Source of the DNA: an uncultured Chloroflexia bacterium
GTDB lineage: Bacteria > Chloroflexota > Limnocylindria > Limnocylindrales > CSP1-4
Assembly: GCA_963774695.1 (NCBI GenBank)
Contig: CAVZFY010000021.1
Location: forward strand, 148,786 to 212,785
Length of the DNA stretch: 64,000 bases
Reading direction: 5' to 3'
The translations under genes were made by a program, and so were the position numbers. The notes beneath the pieces were generated by a model. It had not been told where the DNA came from and ran no database searches. It saw only the letters and a list, made by a program, of their open reading frames with translations. Positions 8,167 through 31,185 of the stretch are shown one piece after another; the first letter of the stretch is position 1, and the number at the start of each line of letters is the position of its first letter.

Positions 8167-9556
8167 ATGGACGCGAAGCAGGTCTGGCGCGCCGCGCTCG
8201 GAGAGCTCCAGGTTTCGCTTTCGCCCGCCAACTACGAGACGTGGCTGCGCGACACGCGCCTCGTCGACGTCGACGACCAGCGGTTCCGGATCGCCGTCCC
8301 CAACGGCTTCGCCAAGGACTGGCTCGAGACCCGCTACCGGTCCCTGATCTCCCAGACGCTCGCCCGCGTGGTCGGCTACAGCGTCCAGGTCGAGTTCGTG
8401 GTGACCGCGGAGGGCGCGGCGAACGGGGCGGCCAACGGCGACGCCGCCGGCAACGGGGCCGAGCCCGCGACCCGCTCCGTCCGCGTCGAGCCGACCCGGG
8501 TCGGGGCGCCCGAGGGCGCGGCCGCCGGTGCGACCTACCTCAACCCGCGCTACACCTTCTCGAACTTCATCGTCGGCTCGGCCAACCGCCTCGCGCACGC
8601 GGCGTCGCTCTCGGTCGCCGAGCGTCCCGGCCACGCCTACAACCCGCTGTTCCTGTACGGCGGCGTCGGGCCTCGGCAAGACCCACCTGATGCACGCGAT
8701 CGGCAACGCGGTCGTCGGCAAGTTCCCGCGCAAGCGCGTCGTCTACGCGACCAGCGAGAAGTTCACCAACGAGTTCATCACCTCGATCCAGCAGGGCAAG
8801 ATCGACGACTTCCGGGCCCGCTACCGCCGGATCGACCTGCTGCTGATCGACGACATCCAGTTCATCGCGGACAAGGAACGGACCCAGGAAGAGTTCTTCC
8901 ACACGTTCAACGCGATCCACGAGGACGGCAAGCAGATCGTGCTGTCGTCCGACCGGCCGCCGAAGGCGATCCTGACGCTCGAGGAGCGGCTCCGGTCGCG
9001 CTTCGAGTGGGGCCTCATCGCCGACCTGACGGCGCCGGACCTCGAGACCCGGATCGCGATCCTGCGCGCGAAGGCCGAGGAGCAGGGCGTCCCGATCACG
9101 TCCGACGTCATCGAGTTCATCGCCCGCAAGGTCGTGTCCAACATCCGCGAGCTCGAGGGCGCGCTCAACCGGATCGTCGCGTACGCGTCGATGGGCGCCA
9201 TGCCCATCTCGATCGAGCTCGCCCAGGCGGTGCTCTCGAACGTGCTCTACAACCCCAAGAAGCGCCAGGTCACGCCGGAGCGGATCGCCCAGGCCGTGTC
9301 CGACTACTACGGCGTCGGGATGGAGCAGCTGCGCGGCCAGAAGCGCGAGAAGAGCATCGTCGTGCCGCGCCAGATCGCGATGTTCCTGATGCGCGAGGAG
9401 ACGGACGTCTCGCTGCTGCGCATCGGCGCCGAGCTTGGCGGCCGGGACCACTCCACGGTCCTCCACGCGTGCGACAAGATCAACCGCGAGATGCAGGTGA
9501 ACGACGAGATGCGGCGCGAGGTCGCGGCCGTCCGGGAGCTGATCTACAGCGAGTAG
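8167..9556 (+). CDS. dnaA: Chromosomal replication initiator DnaA; +1 indel in Walker A region (~8670)
   Basis: [15 protein letters not shown]; [22 protein letters not shown]; [11 protein letters not shown]|[12 protein letters not shown]; [10 protein letters not shown]; [10 protein letters not shown]; [11 protein letters not shown]. Confidence 0.97.
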
Positions 9557-12929: not shown

Positions 12930-15222
12930 TTGGCCGTCCGCCTGCAGCTGAAGCTCGGTGCCGTCACCGAGCAGGACCAGCTCGCCGACTCCCCCGACGC
13001 GATCGTCGTGGTCGAGCCGTCGGTCGGCTCCGTCGCCCGATCGAAGGGGAACCTCTACCTCCTCGTCTCGTCGCGCCTGACGGGCAACCGGGCCAAGGAG
13101 GCGACCCGGATGGTCGCCGACACCATCCGCAACGAGTACTACTACGACGAGTCCGCCGGCATCCGGCAGTGCCTGATCAAGGTCCTCGGCGTGGCCAACA
13201 AGCGGCTCGCCCACCAGAAGGACCGCTACGGCATGGGCCACGCGGCCGACGACGGGGGACCGGTCGGCGTCGCGGTGGCCGTCGTCCGCGGACGCGAGCT
13301 GTACGTGGCGACCGTCGGGCCGGCCGAGGCCTACCTCATCCGCCAGGCCCGGCTGTCCACGCTGCCCGACCCCAACCGCGACCGCGGCCTGCCCGTGGAG
13401 GCCCTCGAGCCCGAGGTCTGGCGCGGCGAGCTCTCGGTCGGCGACTCGCTGTGCCTCGTGTCGGCGAACATCGTCGCCAAGATCGGCACCGACGCCCTCA
13501 AGGACGCGCTGGTCACGCTCCACCCGCAGTCGGCCATCGAGCACCTGCACGCCCGGTTCGTCGCCGCCGACGGCAAGGGCAGCGACGGGGCGCTCGCGTT
13601 CGAGGCGAACGAGGTCGGCGCGACGTACAAGTCCAAGTCGCTGGTCCCGGTCCGGCCCGCCGAGCCGCTCGCCGGTGCGCCCGACAAGTCGCCCATCCCG
13701 CTGGCCGACACCGTGACGTCCAGCGCGGCGGCGATCGGCGCCGGCGCGACCCGGGCCCGGAGCGCCGCCGGCAACGGCTTCCAGCGGGCGATCTGGCGCC
13801 TCCAGGACCTGCTCCCGCACCGCAAGTCCAGCGCGCGCAAGGTGACGGGGGCGGCCTCGCGCATGGAGATGCAGCGCCGGGCCGCCGTGGCGCTGCTGGC
13901 CTTCGTGGTCGTCGCGGGCGCCCTCGGGCTCGGCGTGTACGCGGTCGGCGGCCAGCAACAGAAACAGGAGGCGGTCAAGTCGCTCACGGCGGCGCAGACC
14001 GCGCTCGACGCGGCCAAGGCGGACCTCGCCAGCGTCAGCGGCCCGGGCGTCGACCTCATCAACGACGACCCGAACCGCGCCATGGAGCTCCTCAACGACG
14101 CCTACAAGCAGCTGGCCGCCGCCGAGACCGCGGGCTATCCGCTCGAGCAGATCAGCCCGCTGCGCGAGACGGCCCTCGCCGGGCTCGATCGCCTGTACGG
14201 GGTCACCGCGATCAAGTCGACGCCGCTGTTCACGTTCCCCAAGGACAAGCCGGTCGAGCTGACCGCCCTCGTGCGCGGCTCCGACGGCGCGCCGTACGTG
14301 CTCGACAACGCGAGCAAGACGGTCTTTCGCATCGACCTCGCCAAGAAGACGGCCACCGCCGGTCCTCAAGTCGGGCCAGCGGACGGCGTCGGGGCGCGTC
14401 GCGAACCCGAAGTTCCTCACGGTCGGCGGCCCCGACGTGCTCGTCCTCGACGACAAGAACCAGCTGTGGCGCTGGCGGCCGGCGAACAACTCGGGCCGCG
14501 GCACGCTCGTGCGCATCCCGGTCAAGAACTCCGCGTCGTGGGGCTCGGACGTCAAGGACCTCTCGACCTTCGTGGCCAACTTCGACGCCGCCTTCTACAA
14601 GCTCTACGTCGTCGACCCGTCCGAGCAGAACATCATGGTCCTCGACCCCGCCAACGACGGCTCCGGCTACCCCAGCAAGCCGAGCCGGCGCCTGCCGACG
14701 GACCGGCCGGTCGACGGGATCACGGACCTGATGATCGACGGCGACATCTTCGTCGCGGAGAACGGCCAGGTCGCCCGCGTGATCCCGGCCTCGGGCTGGT
14801 CGCCGCAGCTGCCGGCCGACACCGAGCTCCGCCCCGACAGCACGTACACGATGCTCTCGTCGCCGATCCTCGCCAACGGCAACCCCAGCCGGCGCGTCGG
14901 CGCCCTGTACGCCTTCGACGCCGCCAACCACCGGATCGTCGCGTTCAACAAGTCGGACGGGAAGTACCTCGGCCAGTACCGGCTCCAGGGTGACGACACC
15001 TCGTGGTCCGACCTCAAGGGGATGGACGTCCTGCCGACCGCCCAGGCCGACGCGCCGCCGACCCTGTGGTGGATCTCGGACAAGGGCCTGAACTCCGCGG
15101 TCATGGAGCAGGCGGAGGTCCCGACGCCGTCCGCGTCGCCCGGCGCCAGCCCGTCGGCGAAACCCGCGGTGACGCCGAAGCCCGCGAAGACCCCCAAGCC
15201 GACGAAGAAGCCCAAGCACTGA
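12930..15222 (+). CDS. Membrane protein: degenerate PP2C-like domain, TM helix, helical stalk, extracellular beta-propeller, Pro/Lys/Thr tail; one frameshift (~14370)
   Basis: N-terminus GNLYLLV...AN.RL...VAVAVVRGRELYVATVGPAEAYLIR...GDSLCLVSA follows the PP2C layout. TM is AAVALLAFVVVAGALGLGVYAV. Blade-like repeats are YVLD, VLVLD, LYVVDP, IFVAE, LYAFD. It ends PSASPGASPSAKPAVTPKPAKTPKPTKKPKH. Confidence 0.7.
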
Positions 15223-15886: not shown

Positions 15887-16688
15887 TCAGTCGCCCAGGA
15901 TCGGCCGGCCCCGCCGGCCCGCGCGCTCGCGGTTCGCCCACATCCGCAGGCGCAGGCCCCAGAAGTCCTTCACCGCGCGCCAGATGACCGACGGCTTCGC
16001 GCCGGTCGGCGAGCCGGCGGTCCGCGGGTAGTGCGGGATCCCCACCTGCGCGACGGACCGTCCGGCGGCCTGGACCTTGATCAGCAGCTCGGCCGAGAAG
16101 AACGCGCCGCCGGACTCGACCCGCACGCCCTCGAGCGCCTCGCGGCGGAACAGCTTGCAGGCGCAGTCGACGTCGCTGGACCTTGAGGCCGAAGAAGATC
16201 CGGTTGGCGAGCCGGTAGGTGCGCGCGTAGACGACGCGGATCACCGGGTCGGCGCGCTTGATCCGGTAGCCGACGACGACGTCCGGGCTGGTCCGCCTCG
16301 GCGAGCCGGGCCGTGAGCCGGCCGAGGTCGGCCACGCGGAACTGGCGGTCGCCGTCGGTGAACGCGAGCAGCTCGTAGCGCGACGGCCTCGAAGCCCGAT
16401 CGCAGCGCGCCGCCGTAGCCGCGGTTCACCGGGTGGTGGACGACCCGCACGACGTCCGGATGCTCGGCCGCGAGCCGGTCGGCGATCTCGGCCGTCCGGT
16501 CCCTCGAGCCGTCGTTCGACGACGATGATCTCGAACCGGTCGGCGATCGCGGGCAGCGCCTCGAGCGCCTCGGCGACCAGGCCCTCGAGGTTGGCCTCCT
16601 CGTTGTGGGCGGGAAAGAAGTAGGACAGCCGCGGGACGCGGTCCGGCGCGACCTGGCCCGTGCTCGCCGGCGCGGGAGCAACGGTCAT
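15887..16688 (-). CDS. GT2 glycosyltransferase, polyprenol-phosphate sugar synthase-like (Ppm1/GtrB/ArnC-like); frameshifted
   Basis: [14 protein letters not shown]; NDGSRDRT; [16 protein letters not shown]; FTDGDRQF (DxD); [11 protein letters not shown]; AELLIK...HYPRTAG. Confidence 0.85.
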
Positions 16689-18272
16689 GCGTGAGCCTCC
16701 TGGCGGCCGGTGACCCGGTACAGGTTGCCGGGTTGACCCACCAGTTCGATGACGTAGCGGCTGCGGAGCGCCTCGATCTCGGCCGGTGAGCCGCGGATGA
16801 GGTAGACCGGGCGCGTGTCGAGGTTAGCCTCGATCACGTCCGTGATGCTGCCCAGGTGCTCGTCGAGGCGCGTCCGGTCGTCGATGATCGAGATGTCCGG
16901 CCGGCGGTGCTCGACCAGCTGGCCGTACCACAGGGGCGTCGAGTACGACCACCACGACACGACGACCCCGTTGGGCTCGATCGAGGTGAAGGCCTCGTCG
17001 AGCCAGTCGTGGATCCAGACGGTCGCCGACTGGTCGACGACCCGCCAGCCGCGTCTGCAGGGCGACGGCGGTCGGCAGCAGCAGCGCCACGGCGACCACG
17101 CTGGCCGCGAGCAGGCCGATCACCCGGCGGCGCTCCGCGGCGGCCCGACCGGGCGCCTCGCCGGCCCGCGAGACCACCCACTCGACGACCGCGCCGCCGA
17201 GGATCGCGATCCAGGTCCAGGCGAAGAACGCGGGGCCGATGTAGTAGCGCTCGATGGCGGCGTTCTCGTACGAGGCGGCGAACACGCACGTGGTGAGCGT
17301 GGCGACGCCGGACAGCAGCGCGTAGCGCGGGTGGCGGACGACGGCGACGAGGAAGCCCGACGGGACGAGGAGCAGCAGGGCGCCGTACTGGGCGAACGCG
17401 AGCGACACGAGGTCGTCGACCCGGCCGGCGACGTCGAGCACCTCGCGGGTCACGGAGCCCTGGAACTGGGTCGCGAGCACCACCTCCAGGAACCCGCTCC
17501 ACGTCTCGGGGTGGCCGTAGACGAGCGGCGCGCGGAACGGCCCGGCGCGCAGCGGGAGCTCGAGGTAGAGCAGCGCCGCGACGCCGATGCAGGCGCCGAG
17601 CGCCGCCGCCACGACCTTCGGGCGGAACACGATCCGCGGCTCGACCGCGAGCACGAACAGGCCGACGGCCGGGATCAGCAGCAGCGTGAGCCCGTGGTTG
17701 GCGACCGAGACGCCGAACACGGCCGCCGCCAGCACGATGGCCCGGTCGGCGCGGCGGCGGAGGCGCGGGTCGTCGGGGTGCTCCGCCGCGTCGCGGGCGA
17801 ACCGCTCCCAGCGCAGCAGGAGGGCCACGATCGCGACCAGCAGGACCGCGTGCAGGGCGTGCACGTCGGCGCCCGTGGCGACCCGCCAGACGATCGGCGA
17901 CAGGCCGAAGCCGACGGCGGCGGCCATCCCGACGGCCAGCGGCACCCGGAGGCTCCGCGCGACGACGACCGTGAGGCCGACGGCGGTGGCGACGAGGATC
18001 GCCGACAGGAGGTTGATCGTGAACGCGGGCGAGCCGAGCGGCGAGAGGACGATCGACGCCAGCCAGCCGATGATCGCGTACGCCGGGAACCCGGTCGGGT
18101 GCATGGTGCCCAGGATCGGGAGGACCGTCTGGGCCTCGCCCGTGTCCCAGGCGGCGAGGCCGGGGAGCAGGGTCGCCCGGTAGACGGCGAACACCCCGAT
18201 CCCGACGACGAGCGCGGCGACCCACGTGAGGTCCCGGCGCCGCGGCTCGACCGGGGCCTCGCTACCAGCCAA
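16685..18272 (-). CDS. DUF2723 / TMEM260-like GT-C glycosyltransferase; frameshift near 17060
   Basis: YRATLLPGLAAWDTGEAQ...MHPTGFPAY; ADVHALHA; NHGLT; LYLELPLRA; GHPETWSGF; C-terminal WWSYSTPLWYGQLVE.RRPD. Confidence 0.78.
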
Positions 18273-19687
18273 GCAGCTGGCCCCAGATCACGCCCCACAG
18301 GTTGACCGTCGCGCCGGCGATGACCAGCAGGACGGCGATGCCGCGCGGGCGGCCGTCGACGCGCGCCGCGCCGAGGGCGACGAGCGGCAGGAGGAACGGG
18401 ATGAAGTCGAGCGAGAACCGGTAGCCCCACTGGACCCAGCCCTGGCTGAAGTGGGCGAGGTTGAACAGCGCGATCAGGATGACCGTGGCGCCCGCGCCGA
18501 TCGTGAGGCGGGCCCGTGGCCGCCGGAAGACGGCGAACAGCGCGAGGAGCAGGCCTGGCGCGCTGAGGATGATGCTGGTGCCGATGTCGATCGGCATGAG
18601 CAGCGGGCACGTCGGGTCGAACAGGGTGCGGCGGGCGTCGGGCGTCGCGCACAGCACCACGGGATCGCCGTAGTTGAGCGTGTTGGGCTTGAGCGCGGGC
18701 GCGATCACCGGCAGGGCCCCGAACATGATCCCGAGGTTCTGGGGGATGTACCGCGGGTCCTCGACGGACCACGACGGGTTGTAGCCGAGCGTGGGGTAGC
18801 CGTTGGCCTCGAGCTGGTACTGGTAGTCGTAGCCCGGGTGCAGGAACGACCCCGTCGTGAGGAACGTGTAGATGAGGAGCGCCGCGACCGGGACCACCCC
18901 GCCGACGGCCGCGGACGCCGTCCGGCGGGCCGTCGAGCCGCCGCCGCCGACGAGCATGAAGAACGGCGCCGCGAACACGAGCGGGAGGCGCGCCGTCGCC
19001 GCGATCCCGAGCAGGAGACCGGCGAGCACCTGCGAGCCGTCGAGCGGCCAGAGCCGGCCCGATCGCCGGTCGTCGTCCGGGAGCATCGGCCGCGATCTCC
19101 GCGGCGTCCGCGCCGGCGGCGGCCCGATCGTGGCGGAGGGCCACCCCGACGGCGAGCAGCGCCGCGATGACCGCGACGAGATGGGCGAGGTACCAGGTGC
19201 TGCCGACCGCCGCCGCCCACCACCAGACGGTGCCGGTCGCGAACAGGATCGTCGTCAGGACCCGCACGGACAGCCGGATCCGCAGGCCGCCGAGCATCCA
19301 CCACGCGACGCCGACGCCGATCGCGGCCAGGGCGACGGCGATCGCCTCCTGGTCGGTGGTCAGCCCGAAGAGCGCGACGAACGGCAGCAGGACCAGCGCC
19401 GGCAGCGGCGGGAACGGCAGGAGCACCTGGCCGGTGGGCTGGCCGTTCGCGTCGAACAGCGGGTAGACGTCCTGGAAGTACCAGTTCGCCGGACGGTCGG
19501 TGCCGTCCGGGACGGGCCAGTCGAAGGAAACCTTGCCGTGCAGGAACGCGTCAGCCTGCCAGACGAAGTGGTTGTACTGGTTGTAGTGCTGGGGGTTGGA
19601 CCACGTGTACAGGACGAGCGCCGCCAACGCCAACAGCAGCCCGACGACGACGGCCGTGGCGCGACCGAAGCGGGGCTGGGGCGGCAC
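18262..19687 (-). CDS. Multi-pass membrane protein, probable GT-C-fold glycosyltransferase; frameshift near 19090
   Basis: YNHFVWQADAFLHG...PFPPLPALVLLPF...WYLAHLVA...LLGIAATARLP...WVQWGYRFSLDF; many TM segments; lies in the glycosyltransferase cluster. Confidence 0.55.
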
Positions 19688-19752
19688 ATGGGGCCCGTCA
19701 GGGGCCTCGGCTATACTCCGCTCCACCTTCAACCCTGCGTGAGAGGCTCCCC

Positions 19753-22700
19753 GTGACCGGTCTGGGTTCCGGCGCGCCCGGCCGGGATAGCACCACGGAC
19801 GAGGCCCCCCGGCGAGGCTTCGGCTGGCAGCTCCTGGCGATCCTGGCGATCGCGCTCGTGTTCCGCCTGATGATGGCATACGGGTTCGATGCGCTCCGGG
19901 GATCCGGGTTCCGCTCCGACCTCGACCTGTTCCGGTTCTGGGCGGACAACCTCGGCAAGCAGGGCCCGTTCGGCTTCTACGACCGCGACTTCTTCGCCGA
20001 CTACACCCCGGGCTACCTCTACGCCCTGTGGCTGGTCGGCGTCGTCGGCCAGCTCCTGGGCGGCGTCGGCGACCTGATCAAGCTGCCGGCGATCATCACG
20101 GACGTCGTCCTCGGGCTGATCGTCTACGTGATGGCCCGCGACCTCGGGGTCGGCGAGCGCCGCTCGACGATCGCCGCGGCCGTCGTCGTCCTCAACCCGA
20201 TCACCTGGTTCGACTCGGTGGTCTGGGGCCAGGTCGACAGCTTCGGCACCGTGTTCCTGCTGCTCTCGGTGCGCGAGCTGTGGAAGGCGCGCAGCGAGCG
20301 CGCCGCGATCTTCGCGGTCGTGGCGGCCCTCGTGAAGCCGCAGCTGGCGATCCTCGTGCCGATCGTCGCGGCCGTCACGATCCGGCGCGCGCTGTGGCCC
20401 GACGGCGGCTTCGGGTCGGAAGGGGCGCCCGCGCCGTCGGGGTTCCGGTGGGAGCGGCGGCACCAGGGCCCGATCCGGATCCTGTCGACGGCCGTGGCGG
20501 GCTTCGCGACGGCGGTCGCGCTGTCGGCGCCGTTCGGGCTGTCGGTCGTGTCGTTCTCGACCACGGCGCCGTTCGTCGACTCGTCGCTGATGCGGCTCAT
20601 CCTGAGCACCGCCTCGACCTACTCGTACGTGTCGGTGAACGCGTACAACCTGTGGGCGCTGTTCCCGGTCGACGGCCAGAGCATGGCGACGAGCCGCGGC
20701 TGGATCTACGACGCGCCGGTCGCCGACGCGACGAGCTGGGCCTCGATCGGGCCGTTCCCGGCGGCGGCCGTCGGTGGCGTGCTGCTCGCCCTGCTGCTGT
20801 TCGTCGTCGTGCCCGTCCTCGTGGCGCGACGGCCGGACCGGCTCACGATCCTCGTCGGCGTGTCGGTGCTCGCGCTCGCCTTCTTCGCCGTCCCGACGCG
20901 CGTCCACGAGCGCTACCTGTTCCCGCTGTTCGCGATCGCGGCGATCCCGTTCGCCTTCTCGTGGCGCTGGCGGATCTTCTACGTCGTCGCGTCGATCGCG
21001 ACGTTCCTCAACATGTACGCCGTCCTGACGACGATCTACCCGGACAACCCGAGCATCTCGGACTGGCTGGGGATCGGCGACGCCATCACGTCGCAGGCGG
21101 GCGTGACGGTGATCGCGCTGATGAACACCGGCGCGTTCCTGTGGGCCTTCGCCCAGCTGCGTCCGCGGCGCCCAACGGACGTTCGCCGCGGAGCTCGAGC
21201 GCGGGCGCGTGCCCGACACCTGGGACGCGCCACCGGCCCTCGAGCCGGCACCCGCCGGCGTGATCGCCTTCGACGCGGAGCCCGAGCCGGTGGCGCCGGC
21301 GTCGCGGGGCACGGGAGCGCCGGGCATCGTCGCGCCGGGTGGCCCGGCCGCCGGGGCCGGCGTCCTCGCCCTCGCGCCCGCGCGCCTCGTGCCGGCGTGG
21401 TTCGACCGCCCCGGCTGGACCGACATCGGCCCGATCGGCTGGATCCGCACCCGGATCAACGAGACGCCGATCCGGCCCGACCGGTCCCGCCTCCTGTCCA
21501 CGGAGGGTCGCGGCCGGCTGGATCGCCTGGACCTGTGGATCCTGATCGTGCTCGTCGTGTCGGCGATGTGCCTGCGGACGTTCCGGCTCGCCGAGCCCGC
21601 CCGGATGCACTTCGACGAGGTCTACCACGCGCGGACCGCGGCCGAGTTCCTCCAGGACTGGCGCTACGGGCTGTCCCACTACATCTACGAGTGGACGCAC
21701 CCGCACCTCGCCAAGTACGCGATGGCGGGCGGCATCGTGCTGTTCGCCGGGCACGACACCTCGGCCACGAGCAACCTCGGCACGCCGGTCCGCGACGCGG
21801 CGATCGAGCCCCGCCGCCCCGACCCCCTCTCGGCCACGGCGAGGGACGGCGACCGGGTGTGGACCGTGACCGGCACCGGCCTCACGGGCTACGACCTCCA
21901 GACGCGCAAGCTCGTCGCCTCCTGGCCGATCGCCGGCGCGAGCGCGGTCGCGTACGACGCCGACGGGCAACAAGCTGTACGTCGGCACCGACGGCGGCGA
22001 GCTGCTGGCGCTCGACACGACGCTGTTCGACAGCGACCCCGGCGGGAGCCCGTACGAGCTCCCGTTCCAGCCCGAGTCGGTGACGACCCTCGACGGGGCC
22101 ATCTCGCACCTGGCGACATTCGACAGCGGCGGGAGCGTGGCCGCGGTCCTGCCCGGCGACACCGTCACGATCGTCGACCCGGGGTCCGGCACGGTGACGG
22201 GCTCGGCCGTCGTGCCGGGCGCCGTCGACATGACCGACGCGGGCTCGGGCGACGCGGTCGTCGCCGCGCCCGCGGACGTCGACGACCCGTCGCTGGTCGC
22301 GGACCGCCTGGCGAGCATCCTCGGCGGTGACGCGGCGTCCTACGAGGCGCTGCTGTCCGCGACGGACCAGGACCAGGTGGTGATCGCCGCGCCGCCGGAC
22401 AGCGACGCCCGCAAGTCGCTCGACACCGCGGTCAGCGACGGCACCCTCGCGGGCGTGAGCGTCCAGCCGGTGCCGGAGCTCGCGGTGGCCGGCTCGGACG
22501 GCGTGACGATCCTCGGCAGCACCGGGGCCGTGACGGCCAAGGTCGCGATCGACGGCGGCGCCCACGGCCTGGCGCTGGTCAGCGGCGTCGACGACGGCAC
22601 CCAGCTCTACGTGTCGAGCCAGGACACCAGCAAGGACCCGCAGCTCTCGATCATCGCCGTGTCCGGGACCGCGGCCAAGGAGGGTCCCGTCGTCACCGAC

Positions 22701-25138
22701 ACGATGCCGATGCCCGGCGCCCTGACGAAGGTCGTGTTCGACGAGGCGTCCGAGATGGTCGAGGTCCTCGGCACGGCGCCCGACGGCTCGGGGAGCACGG
22801 TGTACATCGTCGAGACGCACGGCAAGAGCGTGTTCGCCGACCAGCGCGTCCCGTTCGCGCCGGTGGCCTGGGCGCTCGACCACAACCCGGACTACCCGAC
22901 CGCCAACCGCGGCCAGCTGCTGACCTTCGCCTCGGACGGCGAGACCGGCACGCTCGACATCGGGGACTACCCGTTCGCCTGGCGGCTGCCCGGCGTGATC
23001 ATGGGCGTGATCACCGTCGCGTTCCTGTTCCTGCTGACGCGGATCCTGTTCCGGCGGCGCGAGATCGCGGTGCTGGTCGGCCTGTTCGCCCTGCTCGACG
23101 GGATGTTCTTCGTCCAGAGCCGGATCGCGATGAACGACGTCTACACCGGCGCGTTCATCGTCGCCGCGTACGCCGTGTTCGCGTGGCTGTGGCTCAACCC
23201 GGACAAGCCACGATGGGCGTTCTGGACCCTGATGCCCGTCGTCGGCGTCCTGCTCGGCCTCGCGCTCGCCTCGAAGTGGGTGGCGGCCTACGCCATCGGC
23301 GCCCTCGGGCATCCTCATCCTCGCCCGCTCGGCGCTCGGGCGCTTCGTGCTCATCCTCGGGATGATCGGGCTCACCGGCGTGCTCGGCTGGATGGCGATG
23401 GCGGTCCCGTCGGGCAGCGGGGCGATGGGCAACCTGCTGTTCCCGCTGATCATGATCGCCCTGACCCTCGCGACCGTCGTGGTCACCGTGTACCACCCGA
23501 TCGCGTGGTCGGACGAGGAGATGTGGATCGCGGTCGCCGCGCCGGCCGGCCTCGGCATCCTCGTCGCGGTCGGCTCGATCCTGGTGGGCAAGGCCGGCAA
23601 CACGATCACCGTCGGCCCGGTCAGGTTCACGCCGCTCGAGGTCGCCTTCGCGCTGATCGTGGTGGCCGGCCTCGCCTACCTCGCGTTCCAGGTCGCGGGC
23701 CGGCTCGGGTTCGGTCCCGATGGCCCCGCCGCCGGACGCGGACAGTCCGCGCGCCCTGGTGCCGCCGGCGTCGCCGCCCGCGACCGGCTGGCTGCGCCCG
23801 GGCTGGGCCCTCGGGATCCCGATCGTCTGGATGGTCGGCTCGCTGCTCGCGATCCCGCTCGTGGTGTACGTCCTCCTGTACATCCCATGGGCGCTCATCG
23901 AGGGTCACCAGCTGTTCGCGGGCTGGCCGCCGGGCCACACGGGCCAGACGCTGGTCGACCTCACCGCCGAGATGTACCGCTACCACAACGACCTCACGGC
24001 GCCGCACGCCGCGAGCTCGCCGTGGTGGGCGTGGCCGCTGAACCTCAAGCCGGTCTGGTTCTACCAGGGGAGCTTCGCCAACGACACCGCCGCGTCGATC
24101 TACGACGCCGGCAACGTGGTCCTGTGGTGGATGGGGATCCCGGCGATGGCCTTCGTCGCCTACCAGGCGTTCAAGCGCCAGAGCCTGCCGCTCGCGCTGA
24201 TCCTCGTGGGCTTCCTGTGCCAGTGGATCTCGTGGGCCCGCATCGACCGCGCCGCCTTCCAGTACCACTACTACACGAGCCTGCCGTTCCTGTTCATGGC
24301 GCTCGCGTACTTCATCGGGGAGGTGTGGCACGGACCGTCGCGCCGGACGTGGCTGCTCGCGCGGGTCGCCGCGGTGGGCGCCCTGTTCGCGCCGATCTTC
24401 CTGTGGATCATCCGCAAGCCGGTGCTGTGCAACCTCGCCAACGTCGAGGCGGTCAACCCGGGATCCGCGGCGTGCCACGGCGACCCGGGCAACCTCGTCG
24501 TGACGCCCGCCGCCGCGGCGCTCGTGATCGTGGCGCTGGTCACGCTGATCGTGCTCGTGCGGCTCCTGATGAACCTGGGCCGGCCGCACGGGGACGGCAC
24601 GCCGGTCGGGCCGCGCGACCTCCTGCCGCTCGCGATCACGGCCATCGTCGGTGGCGCGGTCATCGCGCTGACGCGCGCGCTGCCCGCCGACGCCGCGCTG
24701 TTCTCGGTGCCCGGCGTCGTGCCGGAGCTGATCGCCGTGATCGCCGCGATACCGCTGGCGCTCGTCGCCATCCAGATCGTCACCGCCCGCGACGCCAGGC
24801 GGTTCGCGGCCGGGTTCGTGATCGCCGCGGCGGCCTGGTTCGTGATCCTGTACCCGAACATCGCCGCGCTGCCGATGCCGGCCGCCCTCGTCAACGCCTA
24901 CCAGGGGATCCTGCCGACCTACCTGTACGCGTTCCAGTTCTCGGTGAACACCCTCGACCGGAGCGGGGCGATCTCGTTCGCCGACCCGCGGTTCGCGATC
25001 CTGATGGTGTTCCTCGTGATCGCCTGCGCCATGGTCGCGTACTCGACCTGGGTGTGGCGGATGGCGCTGGCCGAGGACGACGAGACCGCCACCACCGGCG
25101 ACACCGGTGGCCCCGAGGGCGCGGCGGGTCCCGCCTGA
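19753..25138 (+). CDS. Giant (~1,800 aa) fusion: GT-C mannosyl/glucosyltransferase-like domain plus protein O-mannosyltransferase (GT39/PMT) with a ~400 aa extracellular insert; about 4 frameshifts
   Basis: Domain 1: SDLDLFRFW, DYTPGY, IKLPAI, NPITWFDSVVWGQVDS, KPQ, HERYLFP. PMT: MHFDEVYHARTA, YEWTHPHLAK, FVQSRIAMND, LALASKW, HAASSPWWAWP, GNVVLWW, FQYHY. Frames join without stop codons or internal starts. Confidence 0.75.
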
Positions 25139-25141
25139 CCG

Positions 25142-26401
25142 TCAGGCAGGCTCCGGGGCGGGCTCCGTGACCGGTGCGGTGTCGAACGCCGGGCCCCCGT
25201 CGCCGTCGCTGCCGATCCCGCCGGGGGCGACGAGCGGGCGCGGCGACGGTGGGACCGACGCCGTGAAGTGCTCCGGCAGGGGCCCGGACGCGGCCAGCCG
25301 GCGGATCGCGAACCCGTAGTACTCCTCGACCTTGGCGGTCACGCGCGGCCAGCTGAACTCGGCCGCGCGCAGGATCCCGGCCGCCGACATCTCGGCCGCG
25401 GTGTCGGGCTCGTTCAGGAGCCGGGCGATCGAGCTCGCGATCGCCTTGGGCTGGCGCGGCGGGACGAGCAGCGCCTCGCGGTCGCGCCGGACGACGCCCT
25501 TGTAGCCGTGGATGTCGGACGCGACGATCGGCGCCCCGGAGGCCATCGCCTCGAGCAGCACGATCCCGAACGACTCGCGGCCGGTCGCCGGGGACACGTA
25601 CACGTCCGCGGTCCGGAAGAGCTGCGCCTTCTCGTCGTCGGAGACCCGCCCCAGGAACTCCACGCCGTGGAGCCGGCGGGTCGCGATGTAGCGGCGGGCC
25701 TCGCGCTCCTGCGGCCCGCCACCGACGAGGAGCAGGCGGCACTCGCAGCCGGTCTTGCGCAGGATCCGGTACGCCTGCAGGAGGTCGAGGACGCCCTTGC
25801 GGGGCTCGAACCGCCCGACGAACAGGATGTTCGCGGTGCCGTCCTGCCAGCGGGCCACCGGCACGGCGCGGCGGAACCGCTCGATGTCGACGCCGTTGGG
25901 GATGACCTTGTAGTCGCCGGGGAAGTAGCGGTCGATGAAGTGGCGCGCGGCCGCCGACACCGCGATCCGGCCGTGGAGCCGGTCCGCGTAGGAGCGCATC
26001 GCGCGGCTGCCGAACTCGTAGGCCGGCGACCAGCCGCCGTAGGCGTGGAAGGTGCCGATGTTCACGCTCTTCGACTCGCGCAGGATGATGAGCGAGAGGA
26101 ACGGCACGAACGGCTCGTGGAAGTGGAGGACGTCGAACCGCTCCCGGTCCAGCATCTCCCGCACCTGCGAGATGAAGCGGGGCGACAGCGTCACCGTCCC
26201 GACGGACCCGTTGGCCGGCATCGAGAAGCCCTTGCCGAGGCGGATGACGTCGCCCTCGGACGCGCGCTGGAGCCCGTGGGACGAGGTCAGGATGCGGACG
26301 TCGTGGCCGCGCAGGCGCAGGTTCTCGTAGAGGTACCGGACGTGCTGGGTCACGCCGCCGGGCAGCGGGTACACGTACGGGGAGACGAGGCCGATCTTCA
26401 T
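25142..26401 (-). CDS. pimA: GT4 glycosyltransferase, phosphatidyl-myo-inositol mannosyltransferase-like
   Basis: MKIGLVSPYVYPLPGGVTQHV; HFHEPFVP; GTFH; IAVS..A; VIPNGVD; FVGRFEPRKG; GRESFGIVLLEAMA. Confidence 0.8.
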   Translation of the reverse strand: MKIGLVSPYVYPLPGGVTQHVRYLYENLRLRGHDVRILTSSHGLQRASEGDVIRLGKGFSMPANGSVGTVTLSPRFISQVREMLDRERFDVLHFHEPFVPFLSLIILRESKSVNIGTFHAYGGWSPAYEFGSRAMRSYADRLHGRIAVSAAARHFIDRYFPGDYKVIPNGVDIERFRRAVPVARWQDGTANILFVGRFEPRKGVLDLLQAYRILRKTGCECRLLLVGGGPQEREARRYIATRRLHGVEFLGRVSDDEKAQLFRTADVYVSPATGRESFGIVLLEAMASGAPIVASDIHGYKGVVRRDREALLVPPRQPKAIASSIARLLNEPDTAAEMSAAGILRAAEFSWPRVTAKVEEYYGFAIRRLAASGPLPEHFTASVPPSPRPLVAPGGIGSDGDGGPAFDTAPVTEPAPEPA

Positions 26402-27225
26402 CCCGCGTCCCGCTCCGCGTCCGCGGGCTCGAAGCGCGGCGGCCGGTGGTGCCCGCCCGGATAGCCGTGGTCGCGGCCCGTGCCGTCGCGGCGCAGCCGG
26501 CCGCCAACCTCGGCGCGCGCGTCGCGGCCGCGCTTGCGCAGCTGCCGACCGAACGTCCCGAGCTGGCCTGCGGTGCCGTGGAAGCCGCCGTGATGGGCCG
26601 TGGTGCCCGCGAGGATCGCGGCGCGGACGTCGCCGTCGGTCCGGCCCGGGAAGCTCGTCCAGCCCGATCCCACGGCGTCGACCGCGTGGGCGTCGCTGTT
26701 GCCGATCTGGGACAGGCCGTGGTCCGCGGCGAAGCGGACGACCCGCTCGTGCCAGTAGCGGCCGAGCGCGGTGGGGTTGAACGTCTCGATCGCGTCCGGC
26801 CGCACGGCCGGGTCGGGGTCGTCGAGCAGCCCGCGGAGCACGAACCCCTGGGCGCACAGCGGGTACGGGACGAGCGGGTGGGCCGGGATCGCGATGCCGC
26901 CCTGCTCGTGGACGGCGGCGACGGACCAGCGCAGGCTCCGCAGCCTGGGCACGGGCCGCTCGAGGAACAGCCCGAGCAGGTGGCCGCCGCGGGTGCTGAT
27001 CTCCTCGCCCACCACCACCCGCACGCGCATGCCACCATCCTCGGCCATGCGGCGGGCCGCCAGGGCGGCGTCGATGCGCTCGTGGTCGGTGATCGCGATC
27101 ACGTCGAGCACGGCCTCGCGCTCCACGCGGTCCAGGATCTCGGCGACCGACGCCGTCCCGTCCGATGCGAGCGTGTGGATGTGGAGGTCGGCCCGGCCAC
27201 GCCGCTCGGTGGGGTCCGCGGTCAC
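26398..27225 (-). CDS. PHP-domain metal-dependent phosphoesterase
   Basis: ADLHIHTLASDG, AITDHE, GEEIST..GHL, IPAHP, GNSDAH; GGAGG SD plus GTGA overlap at the start. Confidence 0.88.
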   Translation of the reverse strand: MTADPTERRGRADLHIHTLASDGTASVAEILDRVEREAVLDVIAITDHERIDAALAARRMAEDGGMRVRVVVGEEISTRGGHLLGLFLERPVPRLRSLRWSVAAVHEQGGIAIPAHPLVPYPLCAQGFVLRGLLDDPDPAVRPDAIETFNPTALGRYWHERVVRFAADHGLSQIGNSDAHAVDAVGSGWTSFPGRTDGDVRAAILAGTTAHHGGFHGTAGQLGTFGRQLRKRGRDARAEVGGRLRRDGTGRDHGYPGGHHRPPRFEPADAERDAG

Positions 27226-28233
27226 GGGGTGGCCTCCGCGCCGGCCGGATCGGCTGCGCCGGCATCCGTCGGACGTCCGAGCGGACTGGTCCAGGTCCGG
27301 CCAGATCGGGTGGAACGCGCCCCACCACTGCTCGGGGCCGTCCGCGAGCAGCGACTCGAAGGCGAGCGCGATCGCCGTGGTGAGGCCGACGATCTTCTCG
27401 CGCCGCGTCCCCGTCTCGGGCGTCGGCACGGGGAACAGGCGGGCACGGTAGCGGCCGTGCGCGATCCGGCGCACCGAGCCGACGTAGATCGGGCGGCCGG
27501 TCTCGACGGCGAGCAGCGCCGGTCCGGCGGGGATCGGCGCGGGGTGGCCGAAGAACGGGACGTCGATGCCGGTGTGCGTGAGGTCCCGGTCCGCGACCAG
27601 TCCGACCGACTCGCCGCCCCGGAGCGCGCGGAGCAGCGAGCGGCGCGAGTCGACGATCGGGACGGCGTTGACGCCGACGCGCCGCCGGGAGGTCACGAAC
27701 CAGTGCTGGAGGCCCGGATCGGGGACGGCCTCCATCGGCGCGGTGACGCTGTGCCCGACGAGGTCGGACACGAGCACCACCGGCAGCTCGATGGCGCCGT
27801 AGTGCATGCCGACGATGATGATCGCGTCGCCCGAGGCCAGCATGGCCCGCACGTCGTCGAGACCCTCGACGTCGATGCGCGCGACCGCGGTCCTGACGTC
27901 GTAGGCCCCGACGCGCGCCACCTCCAGGTAGTACCGGGCGGCGTGGCGGAACGACGCGCGGACGAGGCGCTCGAGGGCGTCGGGATCGGTCGCGGCGCGG
28001 CGGGCGGCGGGCGTCCCGCGCCCGCTCGCGGCCAGGCCCTCGCAGACCCGTGCCAGGTTCGCCCGCGCCTGGTCGCGACGGGCCGGCGCCAGGCGGTACC
28101 AGAGCTCGCCGGCGGACTCGGCCGCGGCGACGAGCGGGCGCTCGGGGAGGTGCGACGCGAGCCACGCGGCGCCGACCACGAGCGAGCCGCGGAGGCCCGG
28201 TCGCCCGGCGATCGCCGCGGCCGCGTCGGTCAC
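27222..28233 (-). CDS. Lysophospholipid/PIM acyltransferase (PatA/HtrB family), copy 2
   Basis: SFRHAARYYLE; IIVGMHYGAIE; VGLVADRDL; VPFFG; PAGPALLA; PEQWWGAFHPIW. The true stop (AEATP*) is hidden by a late frameshift. Confidence 0.82.
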
Positions 28234-29268
28234 GGGGACGCGACCTCCGAGACGGGATCGGACGAGGCCGGCGTCCGATGCCGTGGGCTCCGTGAGCCCA
28301 CCGCTGGCGATCGCCCGCGCCTCCAGCGCGCGCGCCTCGGCCGGGTCGTCGGGCCACATCGGCTTGAAGCTGTACCACTGCTCGGGCGCCGCCGCGATCG
28401 TCGCCTCGAGGGCGTCGGCGATCCGCTGGGTCGCCCGCTGGAGGTCGGCCTCGCTCGACGATGGGACGGTGAACTCGCCGTGGGCCTCGATGGCGTAGCG
28501 GCCGTCCGGGAGGCGGCGGATGGCCAGCGGGGCGATGATCGCGCCGCTCTTGGCCGCCAGCGCGGCGGGACCGGCGGGCAGCGTGGTCCAGGCGCCGAAC
28601 AGCTTCACCGGGATGCCGTCGTCGCGGTAGCCCCAGTCGACGAGCAGCGCGAGGATCTCCTTGCGCTTGAGCACCGCGAACAGCCCGCGCAGGTTCCGCC
28701 ACGGGATGACCTTGACGCCCCAGCTCTCGCGCTGGCGGCTGAGGAGCTCGAACAGCTCCGGGTACGAGGAGTCGTCGGCGATGACGCTCACGGGGTAGCC
28801 GCGGCCCGCGAGCGCGGCCCCGACCGCCTCGTTGCTGCCGACGTGCCCGGCGACCACGATCATCGGCCGCCCGGTGGCCCGCCAGCGCTCGACGAGGCGC
28901 TCGACGCTTTCCGCCTCGACGGCCGCCACCAGCTCCTCGCGGGGCCGCGACGGGATCCGCATCAGCTCGACGACGTAGCGCGCGTACTCGCCGTACGCGC
29001 GGAGCGCGAGGCGCCGGACGCGCGGATGATCGGGCGGCAGGCCCAGCACGTGCCCGAAGTTGGCGTTGGAGAACCGCCGCTTCGCCGGCCAGGCGAGGTA
29101 GCTGCCCTTCACCGCGGTGCCGATCACCGCCTCCGAGAGGCGCGGCGGCACATGCGCGAGGACGGCCGCCGTGCCCTTGTAGGCGACGATGGCCGTCCGT
29201 TCGACGATGCGGGGAGAGGAGGTCTGGAGGCGCCGGTGCGGTGCCTCCAGCTTTCGCCCCTGGCTCAC
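28230..29268 (-). CDS. Lysophospholipid/PIM acyltransferase (PatA/HtrB family), copy 1
   Basis: [11 protein letters not shown]; [10 protein letters not shown]; LALLVDWG; VKLFG; PAGPAALA; [11 protein letters not shown]. The true stop (SEVASP*) is hidden by a late frameshift. Confidence 0.82.
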
Positions 29269-30476
29269 CGGGTGGCGGCGGCCTTCTGCTTCGCCACGCC
29301 GGCCAGCGCCTTGGCGTCCTTCTTGGACACCTCGTTGCCGACGAGCGTCTCGTTGTCCTCGCCCCGGATGAACGCCTCGACGCGGTTGTACGCGATGTCG
29401 TCGTGGATCTGGAGGGGCGGGCTCTTCATGAAGTAGCTCGACGGCGCGACGAGCGTGCCCTTGAGGCCGCGATCGAGCCCGATCCGCAGGCAGCGGATCG
29501 CGTCGATGATCACGCCCGCGCTGTTGGGGCTGTCCCAGACCTCGAGCTTGAGCTCCATGTTGAGCGGCACGTCGCCGAACGTCGTGCCCTCGATCCGGAT
29601 GTGGCACCACTTGCGGTCCTTGAGCCACGGCACGTAGTCCGACGGGCCGACGTGGATGTCGCCCTCGGAGATGTCGTAGTCGAGCATCGAGGTGACCGCG
29701 TTGGTCTTGCTGATCTTCTTGGACTCGAGGCGCTCGCGCTCGAGCATGTTCAGGAAGTCGGTGTTGCCGCCGAAGTTCAGCTGGTACGTGCGGTCGATGC
29801 GGACGCCGCGGTCCATGAACAGGCGGGTCAGGACGCGGTGCGTGATCGTCGCGCCGACCTGGCTCTTGATGTCGTCACCGATGACCGGCAGGCCCTCCTC
29901 GGCGAACCGGCGCTGCCAGTAGGGCTCGCGGCCGATGAACACCGGGATGGCGTTGACGAAGCCGACGCCGGCCTTGAGGGCCTGCTCGACGTACCACTTG
30001 GTCGCCTCCTCGCTCCCGACCGGGAGGTAGGAGACGACGACGTCGACCTCGCGCTCCCGCAGGATCCCGACGACGTCGGCCGTGGGTCCGGGCGCCTTCT
30101 CGATGATCTGCGAGAGGTACTTGCCCAGGCCGTCGTGGGTCATGCCGCGGTCGACCTTGACGCCGAGGTGGGGCACGTCCATGAACTTGTACGTGTTGTT
30201 CTGGCCCGAGAAGATCGCCTCGGACAGGTCCTTGCCGACCTTCTCCTTGTCGACGTCGAACGCCGCCACGAACTCCACGTCGCTGATGTGGTAGTCGCCC
30301 AGCTGGACGTGCATCAGCCCCGGGACGAAGTCGCCGGCCTTGGCGTTCTCGTAGTAGTAGCGGCCCTGCACGAGGCTGCTCGCGCAGTTGCCGACGCCGA
30401 CGATGGCGACGCGGATCTTCTTGCCCCGCGCCTTGGGCTCCCCGTGGCCGTTGTGGCCGTTGCCGTTCTTGCTCAC
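29265..30476 (-). CDS. ino1: myo-Inositol-1-phosphate synthase
   Basis: [18 protein letters not shown]; [10 protein letters not shown]; FVNAIPVFI; [11 protein letters not shown]; [13 protein letters not shown]; [10 protein letters not shown]; DSPNSAG; YFMKSPP. Confidence 0.96.
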
Positions 30477-30500
30477 GTGCTCCTGCTCCATGTGCTGCGA

Positions 30501-31185
30501 TTACCCCTGTTCCTGGTTCGATGCCTGGTTGATGGTGGCGACGATGCGCTGGATGACGGTGATGGTGGCGAGGACCGCGATCAGCCCGAGGGCCGCGTCG
30601 AGGATCAGCACGCCGAGCGGCGAGTCGATCAGCCCCGACGCCGTGGTGGCCGCCGGGGTGCCGGCGATGCCGGCACCGATCAACCCGAGGGTGAGGATGA
30701 CGATACGGATCTCGCGCGGGGCGAGCCCGACGTTGGCCATGCCCGTCCCCGGCGCGAAGCCGAGGCTCTCGGACTTGGCCCGCGCGTAGCTGACCATGAA
30801 CGCGGACGACCATCGCCGCGCCGGTCAGGAGCACGGGCAGCTCGTAGCCGAGCTGCAGGGCGCCCCAGAGGATGCCGATGTAGACGACGCCCTCGCCCCA
30901 GCGGTCGAAGGTCGAGTCCATGAACGCGCCGAGCTTGCTGACCTGGTTCGTCGCGCGCGCCAGGGCGCCGTCGAACAGGTCGAACACCCCGCCGAACACG
31001 ACGAGGATGCCGGCGCCGATCCACGCCTGGGCGCCGGCGGCCACGGCGGCGACGCAGGCGATGAGGAAGCCGATGACCGTCAGGGCGTTGGGCGACAGGC
31101 CCAGCCTGCCGAGGCCGACGGCGATGGGGGTCATCAGCCCGCGGACCCGCGCCCGGGTCTCCGGGGAGACGAGCGAGCCGCTCAC
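30501..31185 (-). CDS. pgsA: CDP-alcohol phosphatidyltransferase, phosphatidylinositol-phosphate synthase-like; frameshift near 30800
   Basis: GLSPNALTVIG; DLFDGALAR...GAFMDSTFDRWGE; MVSYARAKSESLG...VGLAPREIR. Confidence 0.88.

Follow-up and report, generated by a model that had tools for sequence, protein, structure and literature searches.

A single-chain fusion of two GT-C glycosyltransferase modules with a predicted beta-propeller in PMT loop 1: a candidate protein O-glycosyltransferase of Limnocylindria

Does a stretch of DNA whose reading frame is broken in four places still stand for one very large glycosyltransferase and, if so, what would such a protein do? The question is raised by positions 19753-25138 (+) of a 64,000-nucleotide stretch (the window: contig CAVZFY010000021.1 of assembly GCA_963774695.1, positions 148,786 to 212,785) from an uncultured Chloroflexia bacterium of the Limnocylindrales. 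Limnocylindria are abundant soil and freshwater bacteria with no cultured model strains, and bacterial protein O-mannosylation has been studied almost only in Actinomycetota, its enzyme Pmt having long been viewed as a lone enzyme. A sequence-only reading of the region had proposed a dual glycosyltransferase of about 1,800 amino acids (aa), in which an N-terminal GT-C module precedes a protein O-mannosyltransferase (PMT) core. Our results show one colinear gene, conserved in relatives. We consider it probable that the fused protein is a polyprenyl-phosphate-hexose-dependent protein O-glycosyltransferase, and probably an O-mannosyltransferase, with a catalytic core of family GT39, a capping propeller and the N-terminal module (N-module) as partner.

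In the window as deposited, no single open reading frame (ORF) runs from 19753 to 25138 (+). The ORF listing gives overlapping ORFs in three frames, among them 19753-22083, 22080-24041, 23347-25170 and 23720-25138; the GC content of the region is 70-75%, so that long spurious ORFs are abundant. We aligned an intact orthologue to the window by translation (tblastn), namely the 1,780-aa protein of the congener G015 (L013:4904-10243). This yielded one colinear gene in five pieces, each 67-84% identical to the orthologue: 19753-21165 in frame 1, 21170-21964 in frame 2, 21969-23309 in frame 3, 23308-23718 in frame 1 and 23720-25138 in frame 2. The true reading hence shifts frame at about 21166, 21966, 23307 and 23715, that is, at the four junctions that the sequence-only reading had flagged; the single ORF that it described exists in intact relatives and not in the window.

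We find the gene in 30 of 31 related genomes, and in most congeners its frame stays open, free of stops, for 1,831-2,203 aa; counted from a conserved GTG start, the proteins measure 1,780-1,793 aa. In a sister family (1.1-Mb genomes, 64% GC) a 1,394-aa version keeps the identical order of parts. A large protein collection held 1,178 relatives among the scored candidates, more than 100 of them 1,760-1,830 aa long, from Candidatus Limnocylindrales and other Chloroflexota and under generic names such as 'phospholipid carrier-dependent glycosyltransferase' or 'Gpi18-like mannosyltransferase'. Among species-representative genomes, relatives turned up at no fewer than 584 loci, and the best 80 of these lie nearly all in metagenome-assembled genomes of Limnocylindrales or other Chloroflexota. 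Both GT-C modules stand in one ORF at 69 of the 76 loci that could be judged, as had been proposed; at the other seven, the N-module lies directly upstream in a different frame.

Four candidates for an unfused PMT-propeller protein (P0098, P0126, P0133 and P0192) were rejected as artefacts, the N-module always adjoining, and no convincing natural split of the modules was found among them. The apparent splits are caused by a 10-nt deletion (L026), by a run of N in a PSGPT repeat (L127) and by frameshifts of long-read type (L128). The deletion, CCGATCCGGC, lies at L026:1567 (window 21467-21476), just before the first transmembrane helix (TM1) of the PMT module, with CCGA microhomology at its flanks. 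It divides the gene into a product of at least 544 aa and one of 1,189 aa that has no TM1. It may be a true variant of the strain or a pseudogene, or else stem from the assembly.

The N-module occupies the first piece (19753..21165 (+), 471 aa, frame 1), and its conserved GTG start is at 19753. The AlphaFold2 model of residues 1-471, built with 96 homologues, has a mean predicted local distance difference test (pLDDT) of 91.4 and a predicted template modelling score (pTM) of 0.91. In Foldseek searches the model matched yeast ALG6 (6snh; TM-score 0.67, E 1e-5), GPI mannosyltransferase I (9e-5), PimE (9dm5; 2e-4), ALG3 (5e-4) and PIG-U, as well as 9wno; TM-scores to PimE and ALG6 were 0.49-0.67. 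The module is thereby predicted to adopt the fold of the GT-C class that includes GT87 (ALG6/PimE/PIG-M type), and a few homologues carry a precomputed match to the GT87 profile (PF09594). Residues D56 (19918), D83 (within the motif DYTPGY), K195, H385, E386 and R387 are invariant in 33-96 sequences, and this extends to the sister family and to a stand-alone paralogue. D56 and D83 lie in the first outer loop. Such conservation would allow catalytic activity and is no proof of it.

The stand-alone paralogue, also of 471 aa, was seen in one Chloroflexota lineage directly upstream of the fused gene (L127:2938-4353; ENA contig NODE_11228). It is 36% identical to the orthologue P0001 (tblastn) and keeps the invariant loop-1 Asp residues. 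Elsewhere in the window's own genome (G000), Pfam GT87 (PimE-type) is matched above its cut-off at least seven more times; contig C13 carries a cluster of four (C13:60-11739), and the others include C4:8984-9454, C2:150002-150550 and C14:17355-17486. These suggest extensive glycan building dependent on polyprenyl-phosphate-mannose in other parts of the genome. A GT87 family search of control genomes gave no loci in Corynebacterium.

A linker of about 100 aa follows (21170..21520 (+)). It is Ala/Pro/Gly-rich and so poorly conserved in the tblastn alignments that its consensus is mostly 'x', until a conserved RLVPAWFDRP...ETPIRPDRS segment; positive charges before TM1 make a cytoplasmic position probable. 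The PMT module then starts (21527..21745 (+)) with TM1 (LDLWILIVLVV), the catalytic HFDEVYH (21608-21628) and a loop-1 helix, THPHLAKYAMAGG, from 21695. Its core helices resume at TM2 (22974..23306 (+)) with FAWRLPG, which holds an invariant Arg, SRIAMNDVY and ASKWVAAY. The Pfam PMT profile (PF02366) scores 52.5-53.3 bits against a cut-off of 22.7, the match covering only profile positions 82-198 because an insert divides the domain, and PMT_4TMC (PF16192) scores 51.8-53 bits against 32.4. When a profile of 99 homologues was compared with fungal Pmt4, it aligned in three blocks, Pmt4 residues 52-94 (TM1 and the DE motif), 140-253 (from TM2 on) and 547-608 (4TMC). About 440 profile positions stand where loop 1 of Pmt4 has 46 residues, so the insert of about 400 aa that had been proposed is indeed in that loop.

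The catalytic features of the PMT core are intact. The DE motif (D17 and E18, numbered as in the near-identical homologue P0098) and the TM2 Arg (R473) are invariant in 99 sequences, HFDEVYH and this Arg align with FDEVHF and AYRSF of Pmt4, and a motif HxxSSPWWxWP is invariant in the 99 homologues. The six motifs quoted in the sequence-only reading, DYTPGY (19999-20016), WGQVDS (20224-20241), KPQ (20335-20343), HERYLFP (20905-20925), HFDEVYH (quoted there as FDE) and THPHLAK (21695-21715), are all found where it had placed them, and each is invariant or near-invariant in 96-99 homologues. It had also noticed extra TM helices in the C-terminal part, and two such regions are present. About 135 aa of helices (helices 589-712 of the model) fill the piece after the third junction (23308-23718 (+)), between the Pfam PMT and PMT_4TMC regions, and have no Pfam match. 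Then, following the PMT_4TMC domain (MYRYHNDLTAPHAASSPWWAWP; 23948-24424 (+)), which corresponds to Pmt4 residues 547-608, a conserved C-terminal extension of about 235 aa (24425-25135 (+)) adds further helices in the model and, among its invariant columns, a Cys pair. The stop codon is at 25136-25138.

The insert itself (21746..22965 (+)) crosses the second junction and is bounded by the THPHLAK helix before it and the FAWRLPG TM helix (22974) after it. The AlphaFold2 model of PMT and insert, made on P0098, has a pLDDT of 85 and a pTM of 0.84, the insert lying mostly at pLDDT 85-97. In this model the segment H48-60 (THPHLAKY...) forms a 13-residue helix, too short for a membrane span, after which an all-beta region of about 30 strands extends over residues 65-464. 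Its Foldseek matches at probability 1.0 are propellers of 7 and 8 blades, with TMt up to 0.74, among them WD40/Gbeta, Cdh1 (TMt 0.73), BamB and an archaeal S-layer YVTN propeller, and PQQ_2 is listed for the homologues P0029 and P0041. The insert is therefore modelled as a folded beta-propeller of 7 or 8 blades, in keeping with what had been guessed from its repeats. A phmmer search for other proteins with the same insert, which had been put forward as a check, recovered 290 proteins among 1.84 billion representatives; in the full-length proteins among the 150 matches listed (about 1,670-1,830 aa) the insert falls near residues 700-1,090, and the rest are mostly fragments.

Between the blades is spliced an alpha/beta subdomain of about 65-95 aa (22245..22529 (+); helices 241-290 of the model). 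Here positions 818-912 of profile A1 weakly resemble, at E 1.3e-5, residues 70-164 of 4ovd_A, which belong to the N-terminal pedestal region of a class-B penicillin-binding protein. The resemblance may point to a tie with the peptidoglycan machinery or with the surfaces by which it interacts.

In our preferred reading, these parts make up one cytoplasmic-membrane protein of about 1,790 aa with three functional parts. A glycosyltransferase of family GT2 encoded next to the gene would make a carrier-linked sugar, and the GT39 core would move the hexose, most likely mannose, from its polyprenyl-phosphate carrier to Ser or Thr of exported proteins, a transfer that would take place at the outer face of the membrane. 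The propeller, spliced into loop 1 about 40 residues past the catalytic Asp-Glu, would sit over the active site and could admit or hold acceptor proteins. The N-module would serve as an obligatory partner subunit of the PMT core, and may also elongate the glycan as an active transferase.

This last option was part of the sequence-only reading, in which one chain initiates and extends O-glycans. We treat it as a refinement of the O-glycosyltransferase reading, not as an exclusive rival, and hold it tentatively: the PMT core would set the first mannose and an active N-module would elongate the same O-glycan. The invariant residues of the N-module, found even in the sister family and the stand-alone paralogue, speak for it, and its fold is that of active mannosyl- and glucosyltransferases. 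PimE-type GT87 enzymes form alpha-1,2-mannose links that resemble those of actinobacterial O-glycans. On the other hand, the non-catalytic PIG-U is also among the top structural matches, no sequence-level alignment places the catalytic Asp of ALG6 (D69) or PimE (D58) on the module, and the mycobacterial counterpart Rv0051 is described in a preprint as a scaffold without catalytic residues (bioRxiv 10.64898/2026.07.15.738315). The nearest folds, moreover, are those of enzymes with lipid-linked acceptors, and we regard the sequence-only interpretation as supported in part.

We also compared the genes around the fused gene. Upstream and divergent from it lies a set of three genes (15888..19729 (-)), assigned by Pfam from the window pieces and intact L069 orthologues: a GT2 most like polyprenyl-phosphate-sugar synthases (ArnC, PgfS, PpgS and dolichyl-phosphate hexose transferase), a TMEM260-like GT-C and a membrane protein of about 500 aa. 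Each of the three is frame-broken in the window assembly. The latter two occupy window 16691-19729 (-), and their intact copies are L069:3064-4821 (585 aa, the TMEM260-like GT-C) and L069:4712-6235 (507 aa, of no family). The TMEM260 family is a protein-specific O-mannosyltransferase in animals. With a TMEM260-like GT-C divergent to the fused gene, the locus would hold at least two candidate GT-Cs for protein O-glycosylation. The divergent set is found upstream in 47 of 49 loci.

Downstream and convergent lies an operon of phosphatidylinositol mannoside (PIM) type (25151..31185 (-)), comprising a PimA-like GT4, PHP_C, two Lip_A_acyltrans, inositol-1-P synthase and a CDP-alcohol phosphatidyltransferase, as assigned from the L026 gene table and Pfam; 48 of 49 loci have it. 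The GT2 of the sister family starts or ends no more than about 0.5 kb from the fused gene, on its upstream side, in L022, the one locus with both placed, and it is also inside the locus in L023 and L024. The PIM genes of that family are retained at about 20 kb from the fused gene. Retention of both GT2 and PIM genes is compatible with an obligatory link to the PIM operon and with a loose one. The whole locus is about 8 kb from dnaA/dnaN (dnaA-dnaN-recF), near the replication origin, where gene order is expected to be conserved anyway and may carry less functional meaning.

Several points weigh against protein O-glycosylation as the function, and against parts of the scheme above. The N-module falls below the 25-bit Pfam cut-off, with 18.6-20.2 bits for GT87 (PF09594) and 23.2 bits for ALG6_ALG8, and its profile, searched against the sequences of the Protein Data Bank (PDB) at E up to 10, matched no solved GT-C at the sequence level. 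On the PMT side, the NCBI equivalog model for bacterial Pmt (NCBIfam NF058602) scores 25-41 bits against a cut-off of 800, which argues that the core is a distant GT39 relative and not an orthologue of a characterised Pmt. The propeller is placed over the active site on the strength of where it is inserted. The propeller search gave only 290 matches, with no large family among the matches listed, which argues against close relatedness to the mycobacterial propeller protein Rv3212. The adjoining PIM-type operon makes a glycolipid acceptor possible.

Such an acceptor is the main true rival. Both GT-C modules would then add polyprenyl-phosphate-linked mannose to the PIMs of the adjacent operon, building an envelope glycolipid or lipoglycan, with a lipomannan-like product whose growing glycan would be held by the propeller. 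Beside the immediate proximity of the operon, this agrees with the catalytic nearest structures of the N-module (ALG6, GPI mannosyltransferase I, PimE and ALG3), which use lipid-linked acceptors, and with the further GT87 matches in the genome, consistent with a rich mannolipid chemistry. Nonetheless we regard it as unlikely, because the second module carries both PMT-specific Pfam domains, the DE motif and the TM2 Arg. Furthermore, the two operons are convergent and would not be co-transcribed, the sister family has its PIM genes far off with the GT2 still adjacent, and the near-origin location perhaps lowers the meaning of gene order.

We also examined the frame breaks. In DNA alignments with four to nine congeners, each of the four junctions is one surplus base in the window. 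Junction 1 is an extra G (21166..21167 (+), frame 1 to frame 2) that is absent from L026 and from four congeners; at junction 2 a G is added at about 21962-21968 (+) and frame 2 gives way to frame 3; at junction 3 an added G at 23307 (+) turns frame 3 into frame 1; and at junction 4 an added T at 23715 (+) turns frame 1 into frame 2. L026 is a 10.6-kb contig of an independent JGI metagenome, 94.6% identical to the window over 19900-30557, and it lacks exactly these four bases (G 21167, G about 21962, G 23307 and T 23715).

We used a codon-usage hidden Markov model for frame switches, trained on the genome's own long ORFs. The model finds all four junctions (the first at 21158) and about 33 further frame switches without stops in the 64-kb window, for example at 8666 (dnaA), 12077 and 12486 (recF), 17040, 19085, 33245 and 37360. 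Over the coding sequence of five contigs (C1, C3, C7, C10 and C21), the model counts 0.44-0.58 such stop-less switches per kb, about 85% of them in the '+1 base' direction. The congeners G006 and G010 have 0.03-0.04 per kb, and G015 has 0.16. At the genome's rate about 2.7 breaks would be expected in a gene of 5.4 kb, and four are observed. Comparison of the window with L026, each of the five pieces being read in its own frame, gave ratios of non-synonymous to synonymous substitution (dN/dS) of 0.03-0.12, with 0.25 in the linker, at a synonymous divergence (dS) of about 0.09-0.2. The genome is rated 72% complete in only 29 contigs, which is what indels in marker genes would produce.

Because the extra bases are absent in relatives, similar switches occur genome-wide and dN/dS is low, we conclude that the four breaks are single-base insertion errors of a long-read-type assembly, with the gene almost certainly intact in the organism. 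That it is a real pseudogene with four independent insertions agrees with the window as deposited but is very improbable, given breaks of the same kind at some 0.5 per kb on all five contigs (13-15 times the rate of the clean congeners), purifying ratios in all pieces, a closely related contig with none of the four bases and the low completeness. Programmed frameshifting was ruled out, as the breaks are absent in relatives and belong to the genome-wide pattern. As a false break occurs about once in 2 kb, any gene of this assembly that looks split or fused needs to be checked against relatives. The dnaA-dnaN-recF cluster is followed by a gene (12933-15120 (+), about 730 aa) that no Pfam family matches and that is frame-broken at 14359 as well.

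How does this protein compare with known systems? Full-text searches on fused or tandem GT-C proteins and on Limnocylindria glycosyltransferases gave no account of the architecture, bar one sentence on a two-part fusion of Paenibacillus in a 2026 preprint. Public databases already contain members of the family, generically named, and the logic of the architecture matches a recently proposed complex. That preprint (bioRxiv 10.64898/2026.07.15.738315) proposes a three-part Pmt assembly from predictions and one pull-down. The pull-down, with Pmt of M. smegmatis, recovered homologues of Rv0051, which is GT87-family-like and said to lack catalytic residues, of Rv3212, an eight-bladed periplasmic propeller, and of Rv1209, a small DivIVA-like protein. 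In an AlphaFold3 model reported there, the propeller lies directly over the Pmt active site, and gating of substrates is suggested. The proposal of the sequence-only reading that the insert selects substrates would agree, by analogy, with this role for Rv3212.

The fused protein and the mycobacterial complex of Pmt (Rv1002c, GT39), Rv0051 and Rv3212 have like kinds of parts: a GT39 core with a DE motif, a GT-C of the GT87/ALG6 class and an extracytoplasmic propeller next to the active site; both are without a MIR domain. They differ in that the Limnocylindria protein is one polypeptide, whereas the mycobacterial proteins are separate and interact, and in that its propeller is inside PMT loop 1 whereas Rv3212 is a separate anchored protein. 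The Limnocylindria GT-C partner keeps its invariant acidic and basic residues, in contrast to Rv0051 as described in that source. No DivIVA-like bridge comparable to Rv1209 is apparent in the fused protein, which also has extra TM helices and a C-terminal extension. The two are thus parallel in architecture, as judged from the kinds of parts and their placement and not from sequences, and on this analogy the Limnocylindria protein may be seen as a single-chain counterpart of the Pmt/Rv0051/Rv3212 complex.

The occurrence of this family in at least 584 species genomes of another phylum, with the fusion kept even in genomes of 1.1 Mb, gives independent evolutionary evidence that these parts work as one unit. 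It offers as well a single-chain object of fixed stoichiometry for structural and biochemical study of acceptor choice by PMTs, and Limnocylindria probably glycosylate envelope proteins. A broader possibility, which we hold to be rather doubtful, is that GT39, the GT87-like module and the propeller form an ancient obligatory O-mannosylation machine of Actinomycetota and Chloroflexota, with an active N-module and a propeller that gates acceptors. If true, the Limnocylindria protein would be its Rosetta-stone fusion, in which one polypeptide initiates and elongates O-mannose glycans.

Other systems share fewer of these parts. Paenibacillus GT39 enzymes (UniProt V9WAU2) are translationally fused to a GT87 module, according to the same preprint (bioRxiv 10.64898/2026.07.15.738315), so that GT87-like and GT39 modules are in one chain as in the Limnocylindria protein; the propeller insert was seen in the Chloroflexota family only, among the insert-search matches listed. 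PimE (GT87, 9DM5) and ALG6 (6SNH) have the fold of the N-module and, like it, conserved acidic residues somewhere in the first outer loop, but they stand alone and act on lipid-linked acceptors, whereas the N-module is fused and has no sequence-level match to them. Finally, the eukaryotic Pmt1-Pmt2 and Pmt4 enzymes (PDB 6P25, 9E61 and 9I5K) share with the fused protein the GT39 core, the loop-1 DE motif, the TM2 Arg and the C-terminal four-helix domain and, as dimers, also the pairing of GT-C modules and an outer soluble domain near the active site, thought to engage acceptors. In eukaryotic PMTs this soluble domain is a beta-trefoil MIR domain in loop 5 and the partner is a second GT39; in Limnocylindria, the domain is a predicted beta-propeller in loop 1 and the partner a covalently fused GT-C of another structural class.

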